Shown: piece by piece, positions 11,607 to 54,626 of the stretch
Layout: each line of letters begins with the position of its first letter
How positions within the stretch are numbered: the stretch's first letter is position 1
Source: Candidatus Falkowbacteria bacterium
Lineage (GTDB): Bacteria; Patescibacteriota; Patescibacteriia; JAACEG01
Direction of reading: 5' to 3'
Assembly (NCBI GenBank): GCA_018651725.1
Contig: JABIDK010000001.1
Span: forward strand, 748 to 64,747
Length of the DNA: 64,000 nt
Program-made: the position numbers and the translations under genes
Notes under the pieces: model-generated
What the model was told of the DNA's origin: nothing
The model's database searches: none
Seen by the model: the letters and a program-made list of their open reading frames with translations, nothing else

Positions 11607-14600
11607 TTATTTATTTTCCTTATCTTTGGAAGAACCTTTAATATCTCTTCCTTCTTTTAAAAGCTCAACATCAAGCCCAAGTCCTTTGAACTCTCTGACT
11701 AAAACATTAAAAGACTCAGGGATATTTACTTTTTGTATTTCTTCACCTTTAATTATTGACTCGTAAGCTTTGCTTCTACCGGGAACATCGTCTGACTTAA
11801 TGGTAAGCATCTCCTGTAAGATATGAGCAGCGCCATAGCCTTCAAGCGCCCAAACTTCCATTTCACCAAATCTTTGTCCACCAAACTGAGCTTTACCACC
11901 AAGAGGTTGTTGAGTAATAAGCGAGTAAGGACCAATTGAACGTTGGTGAATTTTATCCTCAACCATATGGTTAAGCTTTAACATATATTTATAGCCAACA
12001 ACTGTTTTGTCATCAAATCTATCGCCTGTTCGGCCGTCATATAAAGTTAATTTTCCATCTTCCGGGTAACCGTATTTTTTAAGTTCAGCTCTAATAATAT
12101 GTTCCGGGATACCATCAAGCGGAGGAGTAGCTACTTTATAATCACCTGCCTGAGCCGCCAAACCTAAATGAGTTTCAAGTAATTGACCCAAGTTCATACG
12201 AGAGATTACTCCCAAAGGCGATAGAATAACATCGATTGGAGTACCGTCTTCAAGGCAAGGCATATCTGCAACCGGTACAATTTTGGAAACAACTCCTTTG
12301 TTACCATGACGACCGGACATTTTATCTCCCACCTGAATTTTTCTTAGGTTTGCCACTGAAATTTGGATTGTTTTAATAACACCGGGCTGTAATTTATCTC
12401 CGTCTGCGCGAGAGAAAATTTGAATAGCAACAATTTTACCGTGTTCACCGTGTTCTAAAACAAGCGAAGTGTCCCGAACGTCTTTGGCTTTTTCTCCAAA
12501 AATTGCTCTAAGCAGTTTTTCTTCGCTGGATAGCTCGGTTTCTCCTTTTGGTGTAATTTTACCAACTAAAATATCTCCGGACTTAACTTCAGCCCCGATT
12601 CTTACAACTCCTTCATCGTCTAGGTTTTTTAATTTTTCTTCACCAATATTTGGAATGTCTCTGGTAACAATTTCAGGACCAAGTTTTGTGTCGCGAACAT
12701 CGATTGAATAGTTATTAATATGAATTGAGCTGTAGAAATCATCTTTTACCAATCTCTCTGAAATAATAATCGCGTCTTCATAGTTATAGCCTTCCCAAGA
12801 CATAAACGCTACCAAAATATTTCTACCAAGAGCAAGTTCTTTACCTTCAATTGACTGACCGTCTGATAGTGCTTGACCTTTTTTAACGTTTTCTTCAATC
12901 TCAACTATTGGATGCTGATTAATACAAGTGGATTGGTTTGATCGTACAAATTTTGATAGATCGTAAACATCCAAATCTCCTTTGCTGTTTAGTATCTCAA
13001 TTTTATCGGCAGAAACCGCTGACACTTTTCCGCTTTCTTTTGTTCTGACAACATGACCGGAGTCAAGAGCGGCTTTTTCTTCCACACCTGTTCCAACAAA
13101 AGGAGCTTGTGGGCTTACTAACGGAACAGCTTGGCGTTGCATGTTAGTTCCCATTAAAGCTCTAACCGCATCGTCGTGCTCTAAAAAAGGGATTAAAGAT
13201 GTTGCAATAGAAACAATCTGTTTTGGGGAAACATCCATAAAATCAACCTTGGAAACATCGTCAATATCCGGTACCCCGTATTTTCTAACCTCTACTTTGT
13301 CTTCTAAAAAATAACCATCTTTGTCAATTTCAGAGGTCGCGGTTGTAATAATCATTTTTTCTTCTTCAAATGCGTCTAGGAAAAGTATTTCATCTGTTAC
13401 TATTGGTTTTATGGCAATTGTTTTTAAATCTTTTATTTTGCTTAATTCTTTTGCTTTAGCTGAAGTAATTTTTTCATTCTTTTTTAAAACAACTTTAGCT
13501 CCTGATTTTATATCTTCTCTAGCGATTTTATCAACGGTTATCTTCGGATCATTTTTTATATCGTGTAAAACTTTTCTATAAGGAGTCTCTAAAAATCCAT
13601 ATTCATTAATATGAGCATAACTTGCCAAATGACCAACCAATCCAATGTTCGGTCCCTCCGGAGTGGCGATTGGACAAATTTTCCCATAGTGAGTTCTATG
13701 TACGTCACGAACTTCAAAACCGGCTCTTTCTCTGGTTAATCCGCCCGGCCCCATGGCAGACAGTCTTCTTTTATGTTCAAGCTCTGCTAAAGGATTTGTT
13801 TGATCCATAAACTGACAAAGCTGAGAAGACATAAAAAACTCTTTAACAGCAGAGATGAGCGGTCTGGAGTTAATTAAACGAGCCGGAGTCATATTTGTTT
13901 CATCAAGCGTACTCATTCGGTCTCTGATAATTCTTTCCATTCTAACAACTCCGATTCTAAATCTGTTTTGAACCAACTCACCGATAGTCCTGATTCTTCT
14001 GTTTCCAAGATGATCGATGTCGTCGGCTTCTTTTTGAGATATGTTTAAACTGATAATTTCTTCTACAATGTCAACTAAATTTTGGGGATCAAAAATTCTG
14101 TTTTCTTTAGTAATCGGTAGATCTTTATTAAAGCGTCTGTTTAATTTGTATCGTCCTACTTTTCCAAAATCATATCTATCAAAATTAAAAAACATGGCGT
14201 TAATTAACGATCTGACATTATCGATACCCGCTAAATCCCCCGGCCTGATTCTTTTATAGACCTCCATTAGACCTTCATCCTCACTTGTGGTAATATCTTT
14301 TTTCAAAGTGGCTTCAATATAATTAAAGTCCGGATGAGTTTCTACTTTTTGAAAAAGCTCTTTTATTTCTTCGTCGGTGCTATATCCAAAAGCTCGCAGT
14401 AAGGAGGTAACAGCGATTTTTCTTTTCCGGTCAATTTTAACCCAAATAACATTGTTAATATCTGTTTCAATCTCAAGCCAGGCTCCTCTGTTTGGAATAA
14501 TTTTTGCTCCGTAATAGTTTTTTCCTTTTACATTTTCTGAAGAGAAGAATACTCCTGCACTTCTAATAAGTTGAGAAACAATTGCTCTCTCAATACCATT

Positions 14601-25057: not shown

Positions 25058-25786
25058 ATGCTATTAAAAACATTACAAAAAATCGGGCTTAATGAAAAAG
25101 AGGCCAAGGTTTATTTGGCCTCCCTGGAATTGGGCGAAACAAACATACAAAGGATCTCCAAAAAATCAGGGGTAAAAAGAACAACTGTTTACGATATATT
25201 GGAATCGTTAAAAAAAAGAGGGCTAATCAGCACCTTTAAAAAAAATAAAAAAATCTTTTACTATGCGGAATCGCCAAAATCCCTAGACAAAGACCTTGAT
25301 GAAAAAAAAGAATTATTAAAACAGGCCATGTCGGAGCTAATGTCAATTTCCAATCTCATAGATAAAAAGCCGAAGATTAGATACTTTGAACATGTCGAGG
25401 GAATAAAAGAAGTTTATTTGGACACATTAAACTATCCGGAACAAGAAATGGTTTCATGGATCGCTGAAGAAGCTTTTTATAATTTTGATGTTGATTTTTT
25501 AAATAGCTATTATCATCCCAAAAGATTAAAGAAAAAAATTTGGACAAGAGAAATCGCCTCTGATGATCCGGAAACTCAAAAATATAAAAGAGATGATGAA
25601 AAAAGCCTAAGAAACACAAAACTATTATCAGCAGAAGACTTCCCTTTGGATGTAAGTATAAACCTGTACGGAAAAAATAAAATCGGCATTATGTCGTTTG
25701 ACGAAGAAATAGGCATAATAATAGAAAGTGAAAAAATTTATGTTACATTGAAAAGTATGTTTGAATTTGCTTGGGGTAAATTATAA
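25058..25786 (+). CDS. TrmB-family transcriptional regulator (N-terminal wHTH), paralog 1
   Basis: GLNEKEAKVYLASLELGETNIQRISKKSGVKRTTVYDILESLKKRGLI is a TrmB-type wHTH. It is a paralog of 30869-31618. Confidence 0.7.
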   Translation: MLLKTLQKIGLNEKEAKVYLASLELGETNIQRISKKSGVKRTTVYDILESLKKRGLISTFKKNKKIFYYAESPKSLDKDLDEKKELLKQAMSELMSISNLIDKKPKIRYFEHVEGIKEVYLDTLNYPEQEMVSWIAEEAFYNFDVDFLNSYYHPKRLKKKIWTREIASDDPETQKYKRDDEKSLRNTKLLSAEDFPLDVSINLYGKNKIGIMSFDEEIGIIIESEKIYVTLKSMFEFAWGKL

Positions 25787-30868: not shown

Positions 30869-31618
30869 TTATTTTTTTAATAAATCCCAAATTAAATAAA
30901 ACATAGACCTTTGACTTTGGGCAAGCTCCTTGCTTTCAATAACTATTGCCATCATTTCTTTTTTAAAAGAAAACATAGCGATTTTGTCACCCCAAATCAT
31001 TATTAAACTGTGATGATCATAGCTCTTTGGAGAAATCTTTACTTCTCTCAATTCTTGTCGCCCGATTTTCTTTCTTTCTTGCGCTTTTAGCGAATCTTTT
31101 AAAATCGTTTTTACAGGTATTTTTTTCTTAATTCTATTCTTTAAAAAATTCGGCCAGTAATTGCCTAAATTTGCAAAATGGTCTTCAGCCGAGCTAAAGC
31201 CCAAAATTTCTTTGGCTTCATTTAAAACTTGTGCTAAAACAATTTTCATACCATCTGTTCCCTCGTAGAAATAGATTCCGGGCTTAGTTTTGCTGACATT
31301 ATCTATTGATGCTAGCTTAGGCAAAATTTGCTCTAAAAGATTTTCTCTTTGTTTAATAATTATTTTTAACTCTTTCGGATTTACTGCTAAAAATCTTTTC
31401 TTCTTGCCCTCTGAAGCGGTTTTTATAATACCTTCTTTAATCATCTCGTCAATAACGTCATAAATAGTAGTACGCTTAACTTCGGATTTACGCGCTATTT
31501 CTTTAATGGAAGTTTTGCCCAATTCTAAACAGGCTAAATATATTTTAGCCTGTTTTTCATTTAAACCAACTTGTTGTAAAGCAGAAACAAGCATTCTCAC
31601 TGTATTAAAAGTCGACAT
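30869..31618 (-). CDS. TrmB-family transcriptional regulator, paralog 2
   Basis: GLNEKQAKIYLACLELGKTSIKEIARKSEVKRTTIYDVIDEMIKEGII, a TrmB-type wHTH. Confidence 0.7.
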   Translation of the reverse strand: MSTFNTVRMLVSALQQVGLNEKQAKIYLACLELGKTSIKEIARKSEVKRTTIYDVIDEMIKEGIIKTASEGKKKRFLAVNPKELKIIIKQRENLLEQILPKLASIDNVSKTKPGIYFYEGTDGMKIVLAQVLNEAKEILGFSSAEDHFANLGNYWPNFLKNRIKKKIPVKTILKDSLKAQERKKIGRQELREVKISPKSYDHHSLIMIWGDKIAMFSFKKEMMAIVIESKELAQSQRSMFYLIWDLLKK

Positions 31619-44196: not shown

Positions 44197-44234
44197 TTAT
44201 CAGCCAGGGGGCTGATCAGCCCCCTGGCTGATAA
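44197..44234. repeat. Perfect 38-bp GC-rich palindrome in the divergent intergenic region
   Basis: ttatcagccagggggctgatcagccccctggctgataa. Confidence 0.7.
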
Positions 44235-46494: not shown

Positions 46495-46510
46495 TGTTTC
46501 ACGTGAAACA
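46495..46510. repeat. parS-type palindrome, copy 1
   Basis: tgtttcacgtgaaaca matches the chromosomal parS consensus TGTTNCACGTGAAACA. Confidence 0.75.
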
Positions 46511-46534
46511 TAGTAAGATTAAAAGATTAACAAA

Positions 46535-46550
46535 TGTTTCACGTGAAACA
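46535..46550. repeat. parS-type palindrome, copy 2
   Basis: aatgtttcacgtgaaacatt. Confidence 0.75.
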
Positions 46551-46620
46551 TTGTGGAATTGATAAAAATTTGTTATTATATGCTTAAAAGCTTATTAAAC
46601 ATAGCTTTAAAGGGATTTTT

Positions 46621-47016
46621 ATGAACTTAAAACTTAAAAAAACAATTATTGAACTTATATTTTGGTCTCATTTAGTGATAGTTTTTATTTGGTTTGGGTT
46701 ATTTTTTGTGCCAAATTCTCTATGGAGCAATAAAACAGCTTTTCATTTTTGGTTTATCGTTGATATTACAACTATCCAATTTTTTTGGGGGCTTATATTG
46801 TATAAATATACAAAAAAAGTAAATATAATTTGTCCGATGACTACTTTAATGCAAAAATTAAGAGGTTTTCCCCTAAAAACAAAGGAGAATTTCGCTCATT
46901 CTTTTATAGTGGAGTGCTTAGGAAGGTTAAATGTTAAGGTTAGCTATAAAACTATTAATTTACTTTTATTAATTACTGTTGTTTTGGTATCGATTCAGTA
47001 TTATTTGTTAGACTAA
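46621..47016 (+). CDS. Hypothetical small membrane protein
   Basis: Three hydrophobic helices; the ORF lies between parS copies. Confidence 0.45.
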   Translation: MNLKLKKTIIELIFWSHLVIVFIWFGLFFVPNSLWSNKTAFHFWFIVDITTIQFFWGLILYKYTKKVNIICPMTTLMQKLRGFPLKTKENFAHSFIVECLGRLNVKVSYKTINLLLLITVVLVSIQYYLLD

Positions 47017-47019
47017 CAA

Positions 47020-47035
47020 TGTTTCACGTGAAACA
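47020..47035. repeat. parS-type palindrome, copy 3
   Basis: aatgtttcacgtgaaacatt. Confidence 0.75.
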
Positions 47036-47127
47036 TTAATCAAAAAAATATAACAAGGTGAATTCCGAAGGAAGAGAAAGTGGTCTGGGCCAAAACACGA
47101 CAACATAACGATGTGATGTAATGATAA

Positions 47128-47143
47128 TGTTTCACGTGAAACA
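47128..47143. repeat. parS-type palindrome, copy 4
   Basis: aatgtttcacgtgaaacatt. Confidence 0.75.
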
Positions 47144-47233
47144 TTGTATTAAAAAAACCGCACAAATATGCGGTTTTTTGATTTTGTTTAGGCTAGAGGT
47201 CGTATGTTTTCTTACTTTTTTATTTTTTTGATA

Positions 47234-48733
47234 CTATTTAACCCAGTGTTTTTCTTTTATTTCTTTGTCTTCTTCCTCTTTTTTTTCTTTTATTTTGCCT
47301 TTAGCTTGTTTTCTTAGATCCTTTAAGTCCATTTTATCAAGTTCTTTGGCTCGTTTTTTCAAGTATGTTTTAGTATTATTTTTGGGATTTTCTATTACTT
47401 CGGCTAATAAACAATCTAAAATTGCTCCAAATTTGGGACTAGGAGACATTTTCAGGTCTTTTATCAATGTTTCACCACTCACCTTAAGACTTTTTACGGA
47501 AATTGGATCTTTGCTGACTTTATCGATTAAATACTCTAAATGGCGTAATTTGTAGGGTTTTGCCTTTGGGACACCAGACCCAAGCCTGTCTGAAATGCGT
47601 AAATCCATTAAATCTTTCATATTCTCTTTACCTACTTTTTTTACCAGTCTCCTGATTCCGGCATCTGAAACATCACCAACATTATAGTAAAACATGTGGT
47701 TTTTAATCAAATGAGTTACTTTTTCAACGTCTTGGCTGGAAAAAGCCATTCTTTTCATTATTTTTTTAGCTATTTTAGCGCCAACGATGTCGTGGTTGTA
47801 GAAAGTAGCATCAATTCCTTGTCCGCGTTTGGTTTGCGGTTTGGCAATATCATGAAATAAAGCTGCCAATCTAACGCGGTAGTCCTTGCTTGGACAGTGT
47901 TTTAGTGACATTATTAAATGTTTAAAGATAGTATAGGTATGATGCTTGTTTTGATTCATTCCTACACCAAGCTCTAATTCTGGGATAATATATTGCAAAA
48001 GCTTAGCGTTTCGTAGCAAAAGTATACCTTCTTCAGGAGTTTCTGACTGTAAAATCTTAATAAACTCATCGTGAATTCGTTCGTTGGCTATTTTTTTGAT
48101 TAATTTAGCGTTATTTCTGATAGCTTTTAAGGTTTTCGGCTCTATTTTCCAACCTAAAACAACCGCAAATCTAATCGCACGCATCATTCTAAGCGCATCT
48201 TCATTAAAACGCTCGTTCGGATCACCAACCGCCCTAATTAACTTGTTTTTAAGGTCTTTTTGACCGTTAAACAGATCTGTAACTTGATAGTTGTTATCTG
48301 TTGTTTGGTTTTTTGTGTTTTTTGATTGCGCCCGATGTTTCACGTGAAACATTGCCAGTGCATTTACTGTAAAATCTCGTCTTTCTAGGTCTTCTTTTAG
48401 GGTTTTAGCAAATTTTACGCTATCTGGTCGTCTTTTGTCGCTATATTTTGACTCGATTCTGTAGGTTGTTATCTCTACTATATCTATTGTTTCGTCATTA
48501 TTGTTTTTGATTTTTATGCCTACAGTCCCAAATTTATTCTCATAAACAGTTTCAGGGAATATTTTTTGTATTTCTTTTGGTCTGGCGTTTGTAGTGATAT
48601 CCCAATCCTTTGGTTTATTATTTATCAATAAATCACGAACGCAACCACCAACAAGATAAGCCTCAAAATTGGCCTTTTCTAGTGTTTTTAGTGTATTTTG
48701 TACGTATTTTGGGATTTTCATAGTCATAGTCAT
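47234..48733 (-). CDS. cca: CCA-adding tRNA nucleotidyltransferase with a C-terminal HD domain
   Basis: GGCVRDLLINNKPKDWDITT and RRDFTVNALA head motifs, HD region ALFHDIAKP. Contains an in-frame parS-derived insertion (MFHVKH...). Confidence 0.85.
   Translation of the reverse strand: MTMTMKIPKYVQNTLKTLEKANFEAYLVGGCVRDLLINNKPKDWDITTNARPKEIQKIFPETVYENKFGTVGIKIKNNNDETIDIVEITTYRIESKYSDKRRPDSVKFAKTLKEDLERRDFTVNALAMFHVKHRAQSKNTKNQTTDNNYQVTDLFNGQKDLKNKLIRAVGDPNERFNEDALRMMRAIRFAVVLGWKIEPKTLKAIRNNAKLIKKIANERIHDEFIKILQSETPEEGILLLRNAKLLQYIIPELELGVGMNQNKHHTYTIFKHLIMSLKHCPSKDYRVRLAALFHDIAKPQTKRGQGIDATFYNHDIVGAKIAKKIMKRMAFSSQDVEKVTHLIKNHMFYYNVGDVSDAGIRRLVKKVGKENMKDLMDLRISDRLGSGVPKAKPYKLRHLEYLIDKVSKDPISVKSLKVSGETLIKDLKMSPSPKFGAILDCLLAEVIENPKNNTKTYLKKRAKELDKMDLKDLRKQAKGKIKEKKEEEDKEIKEKHWVK
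48336..48351. repeat. parS-type palindrome, copy 5, in frame inside the cca coding sequence
   Basis: gatgtttcacgtgaaacatt, translated as MFHVKH within Cca. Confidence 0.75.
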
Positions 48734-48777
48734 TTAAGCATATAATCATTTAAACATTTAAGCAAGTTGTTTTGCAA

Positions 48778-48793
48778 TGTTTCACGTGAAACA
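48778..48793. repeat. parS-type palindrome, copy 6
   Basis: aatgtttcacgtgaaacatt. Confidence 0.75.
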
Positions 48794-48860
48794 TTATAAA
48801 ATACTTTTAGGAAGCGGGGAAACTTAGTGTTTCCCCGAGATTGGAAGCATAAAAGTACGA

Positions 48861-49094
48861 TTATGCTGATAAATCAGTTGCACGAATATTTTTTACAACA
48901 CTTTTTGTAAATATTACTGCCTTTTCCGGTGAGTCGAATGCTGGGTTTGTGGAAAGTAACGTTGTATGGAAAAAACCATCATGGTATATATTAACTGCAC
49001 CTGCCCATTTACCGGTTTTTTTATCCTGACCATACGGTTCGCAACGAATATCGTTGTCTTTATTCTGGATAACTAATGCTGTATATCTTGTCAT
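48861..49094 (-). CDS. Small hypothetical protein (77 aa)
   Basis: ORF only. Confidence 0.4.
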   Translation of the reverse strand: MTRYTALVIQNKDNDIRCEPYGQDKKTGKWAGAVNIYHDGFFHTTLLSTNPAFDSPEKAVIFTKSVVKNIRATDLSA

Positions 49095-49185
49095 GACACC
49101 CTCCTTTTGCTGATTTAACTTAGTTTAGCCTCCTAAAAGTATTTTATTTTCTAAAGAACAAGATTTTAGATCGTTTAATTGTTAA

Positions 49186-49201
49186 TGTTTCACGTGAAAC
49201 A
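49186..49201. repeat. parS-type palindrome, copy 7
   Basis: aatgtttcacgtgaaacatt. Confidence 0.75.
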
Positions 49202-49243
49202 TTCTTAGCGTTTTATTCTCATGTTTTTTACTTTTTTGAGGAT

Positions 49244-49259
49244 TGTTTCACGTGAAACA
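49244..49259. repeat. parS-type palindrome, copy 8
   Basis: attgtttcacgtgaaacaat. Confidence 0.75.
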
Positions 49260-49274
49260 ATTTTGTGTTTTGTG

Positions 49275-50240
49275 TTATATTTTGATGTTTTTGGCTAACT
49301 GAATGTATTTTTGAGCTGTTTGAGGTAGTTTGTGACCGAGTATTTGCTGGATTTCGCTTACTTTAGTGCCTTTTTTTGCTAAATTAACTGCGAATGTATG
49401 TCGTAGCGAATGACAAGTAGCTTGTTTTTTGATTTTTGTTTTTTTAAAGACTTGTAGAAAGGCTTTTTGAATGGCTCTTTCGGTTAATTTTTGATTTTTT
49501 TGTCCTTTAAATAAATAATTATCTGATAATGTTTCACCCGCCACCAGAACGGTGTCGGGCAGGCGTGAAACATTATCGTCATATGATTGTTCTTGCCCGC
49601 CTGCAACGCTGTAGCAACTGCGGGCAGGTGTTCCAATATATTTTTTTAGCTTTTCAACAATATTTTTTGGTAAACCTAATGTTCTTTTTTGGTGTTTTCC
49701 GTTATTAGTTATTTTAACTTGATTTTTAAAAAAGTCCAGTGTTTTTACCTTAATATTAACTATTTCTGATATTCTAAGGCCTGTTAAGTACATTAATTCA
49801 AAAATTAGCCGATGTTTTGGGTTTTGGGTTGATTTTAGTATTTTGTTTACCTCTTTATCTGTTAAAATAACTGGTTGTTTTTTATCAAGCTTGGCCCGAC
49901 CGATTTTTCCATGCGGAGCAAAAAATTTACGATGTAAAATGCTCTCAAAATAGAACTTTAAAGCACTATGGGTGGTATTTAAGGTAGAACGTGACTTTTT
50001 TTCTTTAACTAGTTTCTCTAAGTAGCTAATTATATCTTTACTTTGAATATTTTTAGGGCTTTTACTCGCAAAACTAACTATTTCTGAGATATAATAAAGG
50101 TAGCTTTTAATGGTTTTACTATCAAAATTCAACTCAACCATTGTTTTCTTTAGCTTATGAAGTGGATTTTTACTGGGGTATTTGTAGGGAATCATGTTAA
50201 TATTTAAACAAGCGAAACGACGATGTTTCACGTGAAACAT
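49275..50240 (-). CDS. Tyrosine recombinase / integrase (XerC/XerD-like); start codon uncertain
   Basis: C-terminal catalytic region HSLRHTFAVNLAKKGTKVSEIQQILGH...YIQ. The annotated N-terminus MFHVKH is encoded by a parS copy, so the real start is probably an internal Met. The ORF contains in-frame GC-rich palindromic insertions. Confidence 0.75.
   Translation of the reverse strand: MFHVKHRRFACLNINMIPYKYPSKNPLHKLKKTMVELNFDSKTIKSYLYYISEIVSFASKSPKNIQSKDIISYLEKLVKEKKSRSTLNTTHSALKFYFESILHRKFFAPHGKIGRAKLDKKQPVILTDKEVNKILKSTQNPKHRLIFELMYLTGLRISEIVNIKVKTLDFFKNQVKITNNGKHQKRTLGLPKNIVEKLKKYIGTPARSCYSVAGGQEQSYDDNVSRLPDTVLVAGETLSDNYLFKGQKNQKLTERAIQKAFLQVFKKTKIKKQATCHSLRHTFAVNLAKKGTKVSEIQQILGHKLPQTAQKYIQLAKNIKI
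49530..49572. repeat. Split parS: the two half-sites are separated by a 27-bp GC-rich insert, inside the integrase ORF
   Basis: tgtttcac | ccgccaccagaacggtgtcgggcaggc | gtgaaaca. Confidence 0.65.
49596..49630. repeat. GC-rich 35-bp element, copy A, in frame in the integrase ORF
   Basis: cccgcctgcaacgctgtagcaactgcgggcaggtg. A near-identical copy lies at 60860-60893. Confidence 0.65.
50224..50239. repeat. parS-type palindrome, copy 9
   Basis: gatgtttcacgtgaaacatt. Confidence 0.75.
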
Positions 50241-50303
50241 TTGTTATCACGTACATTTTTTGGTTTAGGTTAAGGCCCGTGTGTTTTCTTATCTTTTTAT
50301 TAA

Positions 50304-50319
50304 TGTTTCACGTGAAACA
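50304..50319. repeat. parS-type palindrome, copy 10
   Basis: aatgtttcacgtgaaacatt. Confidence 0.75.
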
Positions 50320-53254: not shown

Positions 53255-53869
53255 ATGAAGTATATTGATTTTTACCAACATTTTAAAGATTATCCAATTA
53301 TACAATTGGCTGATGTAAAGAATATTGAGAGTGATTTTGACCATAGACGTCTTTATGAATGGCAAAAAAAGGGATATTTGAAAAGAGTGACTAATAATTT
53401 TTATATTTTTGCTGATAAAAAGTTGTCTGATTTTGAAATGAATTTTGTAGCTAATAAATTGTATCAACCATCTTATTTAAGTCTTGAGTATGCTTTAGGG
53501 TTTTATAGTTTAATTCCAGAAATTGTTTTTTTGCATACCTGTATTACCACTAAGAAGACGAAGCAAATAACTTCTAGCATTGGTAATTTTTCTTATCGTA
53601 GCATAAAAAAAGAATTGTTTTTTGGTTATAAGTTAGTCCAAAAGGATAATATGTTTTTAAAAATTGCTGATCCGGAAAAAGCTTTGTTAGATTTTTTATA
53701 TTTGAGGAGTGATATAAAAAATAAAAATGATGTTTATGAGCTACGAATTAATAAGGATGTTTTTAAGGAGATAATTAATCATGAGAAGATAAATAATTAT
53801 TTAAAAAAGTTTAATTCTAAGCAATTAATTAAAAAAATAAAAATAGTAAATAATTATGTTAAGTCTTAA
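53255..53869 (+). CDS. AbiEi-family antitoxin (type IV TA), putative
   Basis: N-terminal wHTH-like region and the PSYLSLEYALGFYSLIPE motif typical of AbiEi. Overlaps the downstream toxin gene by 14 nt. Confidence 0.6.
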   Translation: MKYIDFYQHFKDYPIIQLADVKNIESDFDHRRLYEWQKKGYLKRVTNNFYIFADKKLSDFEMNFVANKLYQPSYLSLEYALGFYSLIPEIVFLHTCITTKKTKQITSSIGNFSYRSIKKELFFGYKLVQKDNMFLKIADPEKALLDFLYLRSDIKNKNDVYELRINKDVFKEIINHEKINNYLKKFNSKQLIKKIKIVNNYVKS

Positions 53870-54626
53870 TGAAATAAAAAAATATTATCCTGATTTGCAG
53901 GGGTTTGAAAGGGGAATTTTGCGAGAACATCTCCAGTATAAAATTTTGGATATCATTTATAGCAGTAAATTTGGTAGAAAGTTGTCATTTTTAGGTGGAA
54001 CAGCTATGAGAATTTGTTATGACGGAAATAGGTTTTCAGAAGATTTGGATTTTGATAATTTTGGGTTAAGTAAAAAGGAATTTGAAGAAATGTCTGAATT
54101 AATTCGAAAGGAGTTAAGTCGTGAGGGTTATAACGTAGAGTATCGAAACGTTTACAAGGGCGCTTATCATACATATCTTAAATTTTCTGATATTTTGTTT
54201 GAAAATAAACTAACAGCAATGAAGAGTGAGAAAATTATGATTCAGATAGATACTGTGCAAGAGAGTGTTGACTATACGCCGAATATTTTAGTGTTGGCAA
54301 AGTTTGATGTTTTTCGAAACATTAAAGTGACTCCGGTTGATATAATTTTATCTAAAAAAATTGGGGCTGTGTTCGGTAGAAAAAGAGTTAAGGGAAGAGA
54401 CTTTTATGATATTGTTTTTTTAAAAGGGTTTACGGATTTTAATTATGACTACTTAAAAGAAAAGTTTGATATTAAAAACAAACAGGATTTAAAAAAGAGG
54501 TTGCTGGAAAAAATTGCTGATCTTGATTTAAAAAAGTTAGCGCGAGATGTGGAGCCGTTTTTGATTAATCAAGACGAAAAAGCAAGAGTTACAGATTTTA
54601 GGGAGTATATTGAACAAAAACTGTGA
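53856..54626 (+). CDS. AbiEii/AbiGii-family nucleotidyltransferase toxin (DUF1814)
   Basis: LSFLGGTAMRICYDGNRFSEDLDFD is the hallmark GGTAL...RFSEDLD motif of AbiEii. Confidence 0.8.
   Translation: MLSLNEIKKYYPDLQGFERGILREHLQYKILDIIYSSKFGRKLSFLGGTAMRICYDGNRFSEDLDFDNFGLSKKEFEEMSELIRKELSREGYNVEYRNVYKGAYHTYLKFSDILFENKLTAMKSEKIMIQIDTVQESVDYTPNILVLAKFDVFRNIKVTPVDIILSKKIGAVFGRKRVKGRDFYDIVFLKGFTDFNYDYLKEKFDIKNKQDLKKRLLEKIADLDLKKLARDVEPFLINQDEKARVTDFREYIEQKL

Follow-up and report, generated by a model that had tools for sequence, protein, structure and literature searches.

The consensus chromosomal parS site in structural and biochemical work on ParB is TGTTTCAC-GTGAAACA (PMC7383237). Bacterial species carry from 1 to 20-23 parS sites, and why the number varies and the sites cluster is an open question in reviews (PMC7333895). 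Myxococcus xanthus has 24 sites, 22 of them within ~3 kb; this cluster, which ParB binds in vitro, is separated by 4 kb from parA and by ~35 kb from oriC (PMC3899335). In Corynebacterium glutamicum, ten sites (parS1-10) lie on one side of oriC at a distance of 73 kb. They are spread over 35 kb, 9 of the 10 are intergenic, and all are bound by ParB in chromatin immunoprecipitation sequencing and act as SMC loading sites (PMC7083940). Here we describe ten identical, perfect parS palindromes packed into 3,825 bp of the genome of a Candidatus Falkowbacteria bacterium, a member of the Parcubacteria group of Patescibacteria. The array lies in the window, the whole 64-kb stretch of contig JABIDK010000001.1 that was analyzed, and is probably the chromosome's own ParB-loading centromere, located near the origin and to one side of it.

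A preliminary description of this DNA had reported ten exact copies of the palindrome TGTTTCACGTGAAACA and had equated it with the chromosomal ParB/Spo0J consensus. Both statements hold. The ten copies start at 46495, 46535, 47020, 47128, 48336, 48778, 49186, 49244, 50224, and 50304, and each is identical to the consensus parS (PMC7383237). The sites, together with two partial ones that the preliminary description had missed, are as follows.

46495-46510: parS site 1, an exact match to TGTTTCACGTGAAACA between a 73-aa gene and a 131-aa gene
46535-46550: parS site 2, 40 bp from site 1 and ~70 bp upstream of the 131-aa gene
47020-47035: parS site 3, 4 bp past the stop codon of the 131-aa gene
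47128-47143: parS site 4, in a convergent gap directly before a terminator-like hairpin (47152-47179)
48336-48351: parS site 5, in the gene for CCA tRNA nucleotidyltransferase (the CCA enzyme), read in-frame as MFHVKH in a variable loop missing from most homologs
48778-48793: parS site 6, 45 bp upstream of the CCA-enzyme start codon
49186-49201: parS site 7, between a 77-aa gene and a recombinase gene
49244-49259: parS site 8, 58 bp from site 7
50224-50239: parS site 9, ~30 bp upstream of the likely recombinase start (ATG at 50195)
50304-50319: parS site 10, at the center of a 28-bp perfect palindrome
49529-49573: a split eleventh site, the facing half-sites ATGTTTCAC and GTGAAACAT (49529, 49565) lying 27 bp apart, in-frame in the recombinase gene
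47467-47475, plus strand: a lone parS half-site in the CCA-enzyme gene

Ten perfect copies of TGTTTCACGTGAAACA were counted in the window, with no additional match at up to two mismatches. The chance level was taken from 100 dinucleotide-preserving shuffles, which gave a mean of 0.02 matches and a maximum of 1. All ten copies fit the 16-bp inverted repeat TGTTNCACGTGNAACA by which chromosomal parS is recognized. A search for half-sites returned 20 matches versus 0.5 expected in the whole window, and every one is inside the array island. AA..TT flanks are present on 6 of the 10 copies. Symmetry reaches the 18-bp palindrome ATGTTTCACGTGAAACAT in 8 of the 10 and extends to 28 bp in one. The unit common to the copies is the 18-20-bp palindrome only, and the DNA between copies is unrelated. 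No longer repeat unit, terminal repeats, target duplications, or direct repeats bounding the island were found. The copies had been grouped into four close pairs said to be 38-108 bp apart; the pairing stands, and the start-to-start distances are corrected to 40, 108, 58, and 80 bp. Nine of the ten sites are intergenic, one or two in each of the gaps between five consecutive genes, and site 5 is the exception. The number of promoter-like sequences overlapping the sites was not above that in shuffles. The mechanically assigned start of the recombinase open reading frame (ORF), at 50240, is the palindrome of site 9 itself.

The distribution of the site was determined over ~85 kb of this chromosome, from -19.3 kb to +65.6 kb in window coordinates. 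The preliminary description had proposed a check for scattered copies; in this region the palindrome is confined to one locus and is not dispersed, and no parS-like site with two or fewer mismatches occurs in the ~81 kb outside the array. DnaA boxes were used to locate the origin. The 297-bp gap between dnaA and dnaN (window -9.6 to -9.4 kb) contains eight boxes at one mismatch or fewer, and the maximum in any 300-bp stretch inside the window is two. OriC is between dnaA and dnaN at about -9.5 kb in window coordinates. The array is 56-60 kb from oriC, which lies to its left, and thus the earlier suggestion of a partition complex at the origin does not hold. The sites are origin-proximal and non-dispersed over the region read, as expected of chromosomal parS.

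Two relatives bear on the position of the locus relative to the origin (L numbers designate the loci of related genomes). In L134, dnaA and dnaN are followed by two small genes, CCA, and the recombinase gene, and parS is 1.4-3.3 kb from dnaN. L135 has a homologous DnaA-box cluster next to its RmuC gene; RmuC and the array are two genes apart in the window, and the L135 sequence ends within RmuC and covers no array of its own. Adjoining DnaA-box clusters were detected at arrays in relatives only weakly, in L176 and L214. The array locus is near the origin in each case, yet it is not the origin itself.

An origin inside the window, at the cumulative GC-skew minimum near 40.5 kb, was also considered. 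It was rejected by the DnaA-box count and by splitting the skew by gene strand, which showed that much of the GC skew follows the coding strand. A second cumulative minimum appeared at dnaA once the sequence was extended to -19.3 kb. The replication-related skew is negative to the left of dnaA, positive from dnaN to ~0 kb, near zero from 2 to 36 kb, and positive from ~37 kb.

Three side observations concern the origin region. First, a block at ~1.6-37.9 kb (recA, ftsK, rpoC, rpoB, and others, through DNA-alkylation repair and MlaC genes) separates lgt from the phosphoenolpyruvate (PEP) synthase gene. The order in L135 is dnaA-dnaN-penicillin-binding protein-lgt-PEP synthase-Wzy_C-RmuC without the 36-kb block, and lgt and the PEP synthase gene are only one small ORF apart. 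The block genes, including rpoBC, point towards oriC, and the replication-related skew of the block is near zero. The absence of the block from L135 and its near-zero skew therefore suggest a recent insertion or inversion of the recA-ftsK-rpoCB block that placed rpoBC head-on to replication. Second, L135 (20840-21059) and this genome (L132/L133 9716-9933) have DnaA-box clusters that agree in the order and the sequences of their boxes. The L135 cluster is beside RmuC, ~10 kb from dnaN, and the dnaA-dnaN gap of L135 is just 33 bp. Between these close relatives, oriC seems to have changed its position with respect to dnaA. Third, between ftsH and dnaA (L133 6016-8088; window -13.3 to -11.2 kb) lies a gene for a 690-aa protein whose only match, to PcfJ, is weak; the gene is not at that place in L135 or L136.

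Conservation of the array was assessed in contigs of related species, which were reached through CCA-enzyme homologs. Relatives with a 58-73% identical CCA enzyme have 4-17 perfect palindromes at the same locus, the conservation expected of a chromosomal parS region. L128 (CCA enzyme 73% identical) has 17 copies of TGTTTCACGTGAAACA in 3.4 kb, and 14 of the 17 are in a 1.3-kb non-coding gap after CCA. L129 (70% identical) has 10 copies of TGTTTCACGTGAAACA, and L134 has 2 perfect sites plus 1 with a mismatch. L128 and L129 keep the order recombinase-CCA-gap-two small genes-M23 peptidase-...-RmuC-Wzy_C. A metagenome scan with the CCA alignment returned 80 loci. Among these, Moranbacteria-like contigs contain 6-13 copies of TGTTCCACGTGGAACA, which also matches the canonical parS consensus, 0.5-4 kb upstream of CCA, and two others contain four copies of TGTTTCACGTGAAACA. 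By locus, L164, L172, L173, L180, L189, L192, and L194 have 6-13 sites each near CCA, and L177 and L214 have four each. Among the 23 loci that extend 4 kb or more to each side of CCA, 7 have four or more sites within 5 kb. Across Patescibacteria, the CCA-enzyme gene constantly accompanies the arrays. Individual sites are gained and lost between species, but the array keeps its place. The minimum spacing of adjoining sites is 36 bp and the commonest is 36-46 bp, which is the pattern expected if the sites must all be occupied.

Sites in relatives were mapped against ORFs. Of 129 sites at 15 loci, 72 fall in ORFs of at least 120 residues, and in L164, L172, L180, L189, and L192 the entire array is within one long ORF. 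The L172 ORF (7736-9769) was checked and is a gene for a Wzy_C-type membrane protein adjoining CCA; the 714-aa ORF of L180 (7596-9740) has the same peptides. These ORFs, of 677 and 714 residues in L172 and L180, remain open across 13 palindromes, which are read as MFHVEH, CSTWN, or VPRGT. By our estimate an ORF of this length is not expected to be open by chance in AT-rich DNA, and these genes would thus be under selection. No frame of TGTTCCACGTGGAACA or of the CGCGCG variant contains a stop codon, and TGTTTCACGTGAAACA has TGA in one frame. Like the five single-ORF loci, L177 and L214 have TGTTCCACGTGGAACA-bearing genes next to CCA.

A sister lineage has a different palindrome at this locus. 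L130 and L131 (CCA enzyme 65% identical) contain 6 and 10 copies, respectively, of the perfect palindrome TGTTCCGCGCGGAACA (L130 9951-10563; L131 794-3363) and zero canonical copies. Five of the TGTTCCGCGCGGAACA copies, spaced 36-42 bp apart, are in-frame in the CCA-enzyme loop and read MFRAEH, CSARN, and VPRGT. The sequence TGTTCCGC-GCGGAACA departs from parS at the inner base of the half-site, which is G compared to A in parS. This base is nearly invariant among 1030 predicted parS sites (PMC3899335). It is C in NBS, TATTTCCC-GGGAAATA, the binding site of the ParB paralog Noc (PMC7383237). Three half-site classes, TGTTTCAC, TGTTCCAC, and TGTTCCGC, are distributed by lineage. The copies are identical within a genome and change together between lineages, as would be expected if the sites track one trans-acting dimeric reader. 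The simplest reading is that the L130/L131 sub-lineage would have a ParB with shifted specificity. A broader proposal can be offered only tentatively and is somewhat more doubtful than not: the centromere of this clade may be an array that is tied to one locus, where it grows and colonizes coding sequence (the CCA, Xer-like recombinase, and Wzy_C genes), and the switch to TGTTCCGCGCGGAACA may imply a third ParB-family specificity. If true, the switch is a natural record of ParB-parS co-evolution, and the sister lineage with its changed core provides a testable pair for the evolution of ParB-parS specificity.

Established ParABS biology provides a mechanism that the array could serve. CTP-bound ParB dimers would load as sliding clamps at each 16-bp palindrome and slide until CTP hydrolysis or a roadblock. 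With loading sites in every intergenic gap, ParB could be re-loaded on either side of transcription or protein roadblocks to give a dense, compact partition complex. Such a complex would be a segregation handle, acting through ParA if present, and an SMC loading point near the origin.

Several results weigh against the assignment of the array as a ParB-loading centromere. The preliminary description had noted no parA or parB gene in the window, and this was borne out by Pfam analysis of 30 window ORFs, a ParB hidden Markov model, and Walker-motif scans. Neither ParB nor ParA was found in the 85 kb read of this genome (window, flanks, and leftward through dnaN) or in related Patescibacteria loci, ~0.97 Mb in all, surrounding CCA and dnaN. 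The local ParB model was built from 63 ParB ORFs of other phyla and run on 2,563 ORFs of Patescibacteria loci, with a positive control of 63/63; ParA was sought by a Walker-A scan, and the ParB search also covered the dnaN neighborhoods of four relatives. For contrast, ParB was present in the same 8 kb in 63 of 120 listed parS-pair blocks from other phyla. No paper was found that links parS or ParB to Patescibacteria, and the array is not adjacent to oriC in this genome. The presence of a ParB gene is therefore our assumption, and from it we infer that ParB binds these sites, along with everything downstream of binding. The array is still considered a probable ParB-loading centromere because the palindromes match the ParB consensus exactly and do so in two canonical variants. 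A more radical and more doubtful reading is that these genomes lack a canonical ParB and that another protein reads the sites.

A related explanation is that the sites are operators or recombination sites for a non-ParB protein, either the Xer-like recombinase, with 7-bp arms around a 6-bp CACGTG, or a TrmB regulator, and that the match to parS is coincidental or co-opted. This is unlikely, although it has more in its favor than the other alternatives: ParB was not found, the recombinase is linked to the array in close relatives, relatives differ by rearrangements of the genes around the locus, a TrmB gene is beside the array in L130 and beside dnaN here, and most sites are in gaps near gene starts. 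The match to the pan-bacterial ParB site is, however, 16 of 16 bases in two canonical variants. Core sites of the dif, sfx, and lox types have two inverted arms of 9-13 bp around an asymmetric spacer of 6-8 bp. The sites here are palindromic through a symmetric center that confers no directionality on a recombinase, and their arms, at most 7 bp, are far shorter than those of dif, lox, or sfx, so they do not have the form of a tyrosine-recombinase core site. The distant arrays have no recombinase neighbor, the placement of 72 of 129 sites inside ORFs is unlike that of operators, and the sole rearrangement junction that could be placed (~36.5-38 kb) holds no site.

The TrmB family drew attention for another reason. 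TrmB-family helix-turn-helix regulators are unusually frequent in this genome, with three in 85 kb (25058-25786, 30869-31618, and L133 11379-12104). The gene that adjoins the array in L130 is at 12272-12961.

A second alternative is a selfish short repeat of the repetitive extragenic palindromic (REP), miniature inverted-repeat transposable element (MITE), or Rickettsia palindromic element (RPE) kind that spreads locally, including in-frame, and has no role as a centromere. The in-frame insertions in the CCA, Xer, and Wzy_C genes recall Rickettsia palindromic elements, and copy number varies greatly among relatives. This explanation is nevertheless improbable. The copies occupy one locus of no more than 3.8 kb per genome, with none in the remaining 81 kb here, and dispersed repeats have many copies of a longer unit; only 18-20 bp are common to the copies, with no terminal repeats or target duplications. 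The locus is kept over a large phylogenetic distance, and the sequence equals a known protein-binding site.

The weakest alternative, raised in the preliminary description, holds that the array belongs to an integrated or mobile replicon (plasmid, integrative and conjugative element, or prophage), serves as its centromere, and is marked as such by the adjacent integrase. It is highly improbable. In its favor, a tyrosine recombinase gene lies inside the island, an AbiE toxin-antitoxin pair is 3 kb to the right, viral-collection contigs bear up to 6 perfect chromosomal-type parS sites, and an IS1595 transposase and a bAvd gene occur nearby in a relative at 90% identity. Against it, the recombinase-CCA-array-M23-RmuC order is kept at only ~70% protein identity, the housekeeping CCA enzyme is inside the island and core chromosomal genes are its neighbors, no replication, partition, conjugation, or phage genes were found within ±10 kb here or in relatives, there is no composition shift at the island, no bounding direct repeats or plasmid similarity were found, the viral-collection loci have no proteins in common with the array loci, and distant arrays lack a recombinase neighbor. 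Conservation of the recombinase, the housekeeping content, and the lack of plasmid similarity and bounding repeats together remove the case for mobility. The locus has neither the parAB and replication or transfer genes of its own nor the presence/absence pattern with attachment sites that identify a plasmid or mobile partition locus. The recombinase is a conserved neighbor of CCA in close relatives and not a marker of mobility.

The viral-collection contigs are an observation in their own right. Two perfect chromosomal-type parS sites 20-50 bp apart were present in 61 contigs (L220-L280), and L270 (6137-6460) has six sites in ~310 bp. A ParB-like ORF was found in 1 of the 61, and the contigs may represent phages or elements relying on the ParB of their host. 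They were dropped as possible kin of the array, being unrelated to these loci.

The genes of the island are listed below.

46621-47016, plus strand: 131-aa membrane protein with no assigned function, bracketed by parS pairs; 57-59% identical proteins are beside the array in relatives
47234-48733, minus strand: CCA tRNA nucleotidyltransferase with PolyA_pol head and HD domains
48861-49094, minus strand: 77-aa ORF inside the island with no family match
49275-50195, minus strand: Xer-like tyrosine recombinase with an in-frame GC-rich insertion

The last of these is the integrase of the preliminary description, and it does adjoin the sites. Its best NCBIfam matches were XerA/integron-integrase, XerC, and XerD, all under their cut-offs. 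The insertion in the recombinase gene (49529-49640) is GC-rich within an AT-rich genome; 27 bp of it split a parS site (CCGCCACCAGAACGGTGTCGGGCAGGC), and a GCGGGCAGG-like motif is present three times in ~75 bp. The recombinases of relatives are shorter, 263-299 aa in gene lists.

The chromosomal setting was established from the gene content of the window and from other assemblies. The host is a low-GC Patescibacteria metagenome-assembled genome (MAG). The window is identical over 64 kb to JABHZI010000001.1 80,295-144,294 (145,943 bp; MAG GCA_018656705.1), and its genes recur together on independent assemblies in contigs of up to 359 kb. The core genes encoded are rpoB, rpoC, ftsK, recA, lgt, PEP synthase, RmuC, an M23/LysM peptidase, the CCA enzyme, EF-P (efp), rpsF (S6)-ssb-rpsR (S18), and ychF. 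The GC content is ~34%. No tRNA or Rfam match was found in the window. Two other features were recorded near the array. A unique 38-bp perfect GC-rich palindrome, TTATCAGCCAGGGGGCTGATCAGCCCCCTGGCTGATAA, is at 44197-44234, between the divergent RmuC and M23 genes and 11 bp ahead of the RmuC start. No palindrome in the window is longer, and this one is absent from all other loci compared. Genes for an AbiEi-like antitoxin and an AbiEii toxin (53255-54626), the AbiE pair mentioned above, lie beside NUDIX and serine-hydrolase genes.

Dense chromosomal parS arrays are already known, and the array described here would extend them to the phylum Patescibacteria. What raises the case above the routine is found in relatives, namely the in-frame arrays and the switched core. 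This lineage is an extreme compact parS case in the ~1-Mb genome of an ultrasmall cell, and its useful features are identical sites in every intergenic gap, relatives with up to 17 sites in 3.4 kb, and arrays that run through intact genes. The arrays would mark the centromere region in Patescibacteria MAGs. Even if this is an ordinary parS cluster, the known range of the system would extend to Patescibacteria.

Site density was compared with that of other genomes. At least 120 blocks, drawn from the genomes of many phyla, contain perfect parS pairs 20-50 bp apart. Among the at least 120 listed, 113 blocks have 2-3 sites per 8 kb, six have 4-5, and one has 7, and the ten sites of the window exceed every one of these blocks. 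The preliminary description had judged this density to be plasmid-style. That premise is unneeded, since the M. xanthus chromosome has 22 sites in 3 kb (PMC3899335), a density that equals or exceeds that of the window. The two clusters are alike in being very dense, one-sided, made of canonical parS (TGTTCCACGTGGAACG), and tens of kb from oriC. They differ in that the M. xanthus cluster is 4 kb upstream of parAB and its site sequences vary, whereas the window has no parAB within 85 kb, ten identical perfect palindromes, a location at the CCA-enzyme locus, and arrays that traverse ORFs in relatives. C. glutamicum parS1-10 resemble the array in number, in their 16-bp sites of the B. subtilis type, in one-sidedness, in distance from oriC, and in intergenic bias; they are ~ten times less dense, their function has been shown experimentally, and one site is sufficient. 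The parS sites of Bacillus subtilis and Streptomyces coelicolor have the same consensus and origin-proximal bias but extend across tens to hundreds of kb, in contrast to the packed sites here, with their preferred spacing of ~40 bp.

The sopC locus of the F plasmid consists of 12 tandem 43-bp repeats with a SopB-specific sequence beside sopAB. Like L128, L130, and L131, it has many palindromes ~40 bp apart. It is a true tandem repeat on a plasmid, whereas the window has unrelated DNA between sites, the chromosomal consensus, and a chromosomal context. The Noc/NBS system resembles the sister lineage in that a changed inner half-site base separates both from parS. NBS sites are scattered and coexist with parS, whereas TGTTCCGCGCGGAACA replaces parS at a single locus, and so the TGTTCCGCGCGGAACA array has the look of a centromere that shifted, not of an additional system.

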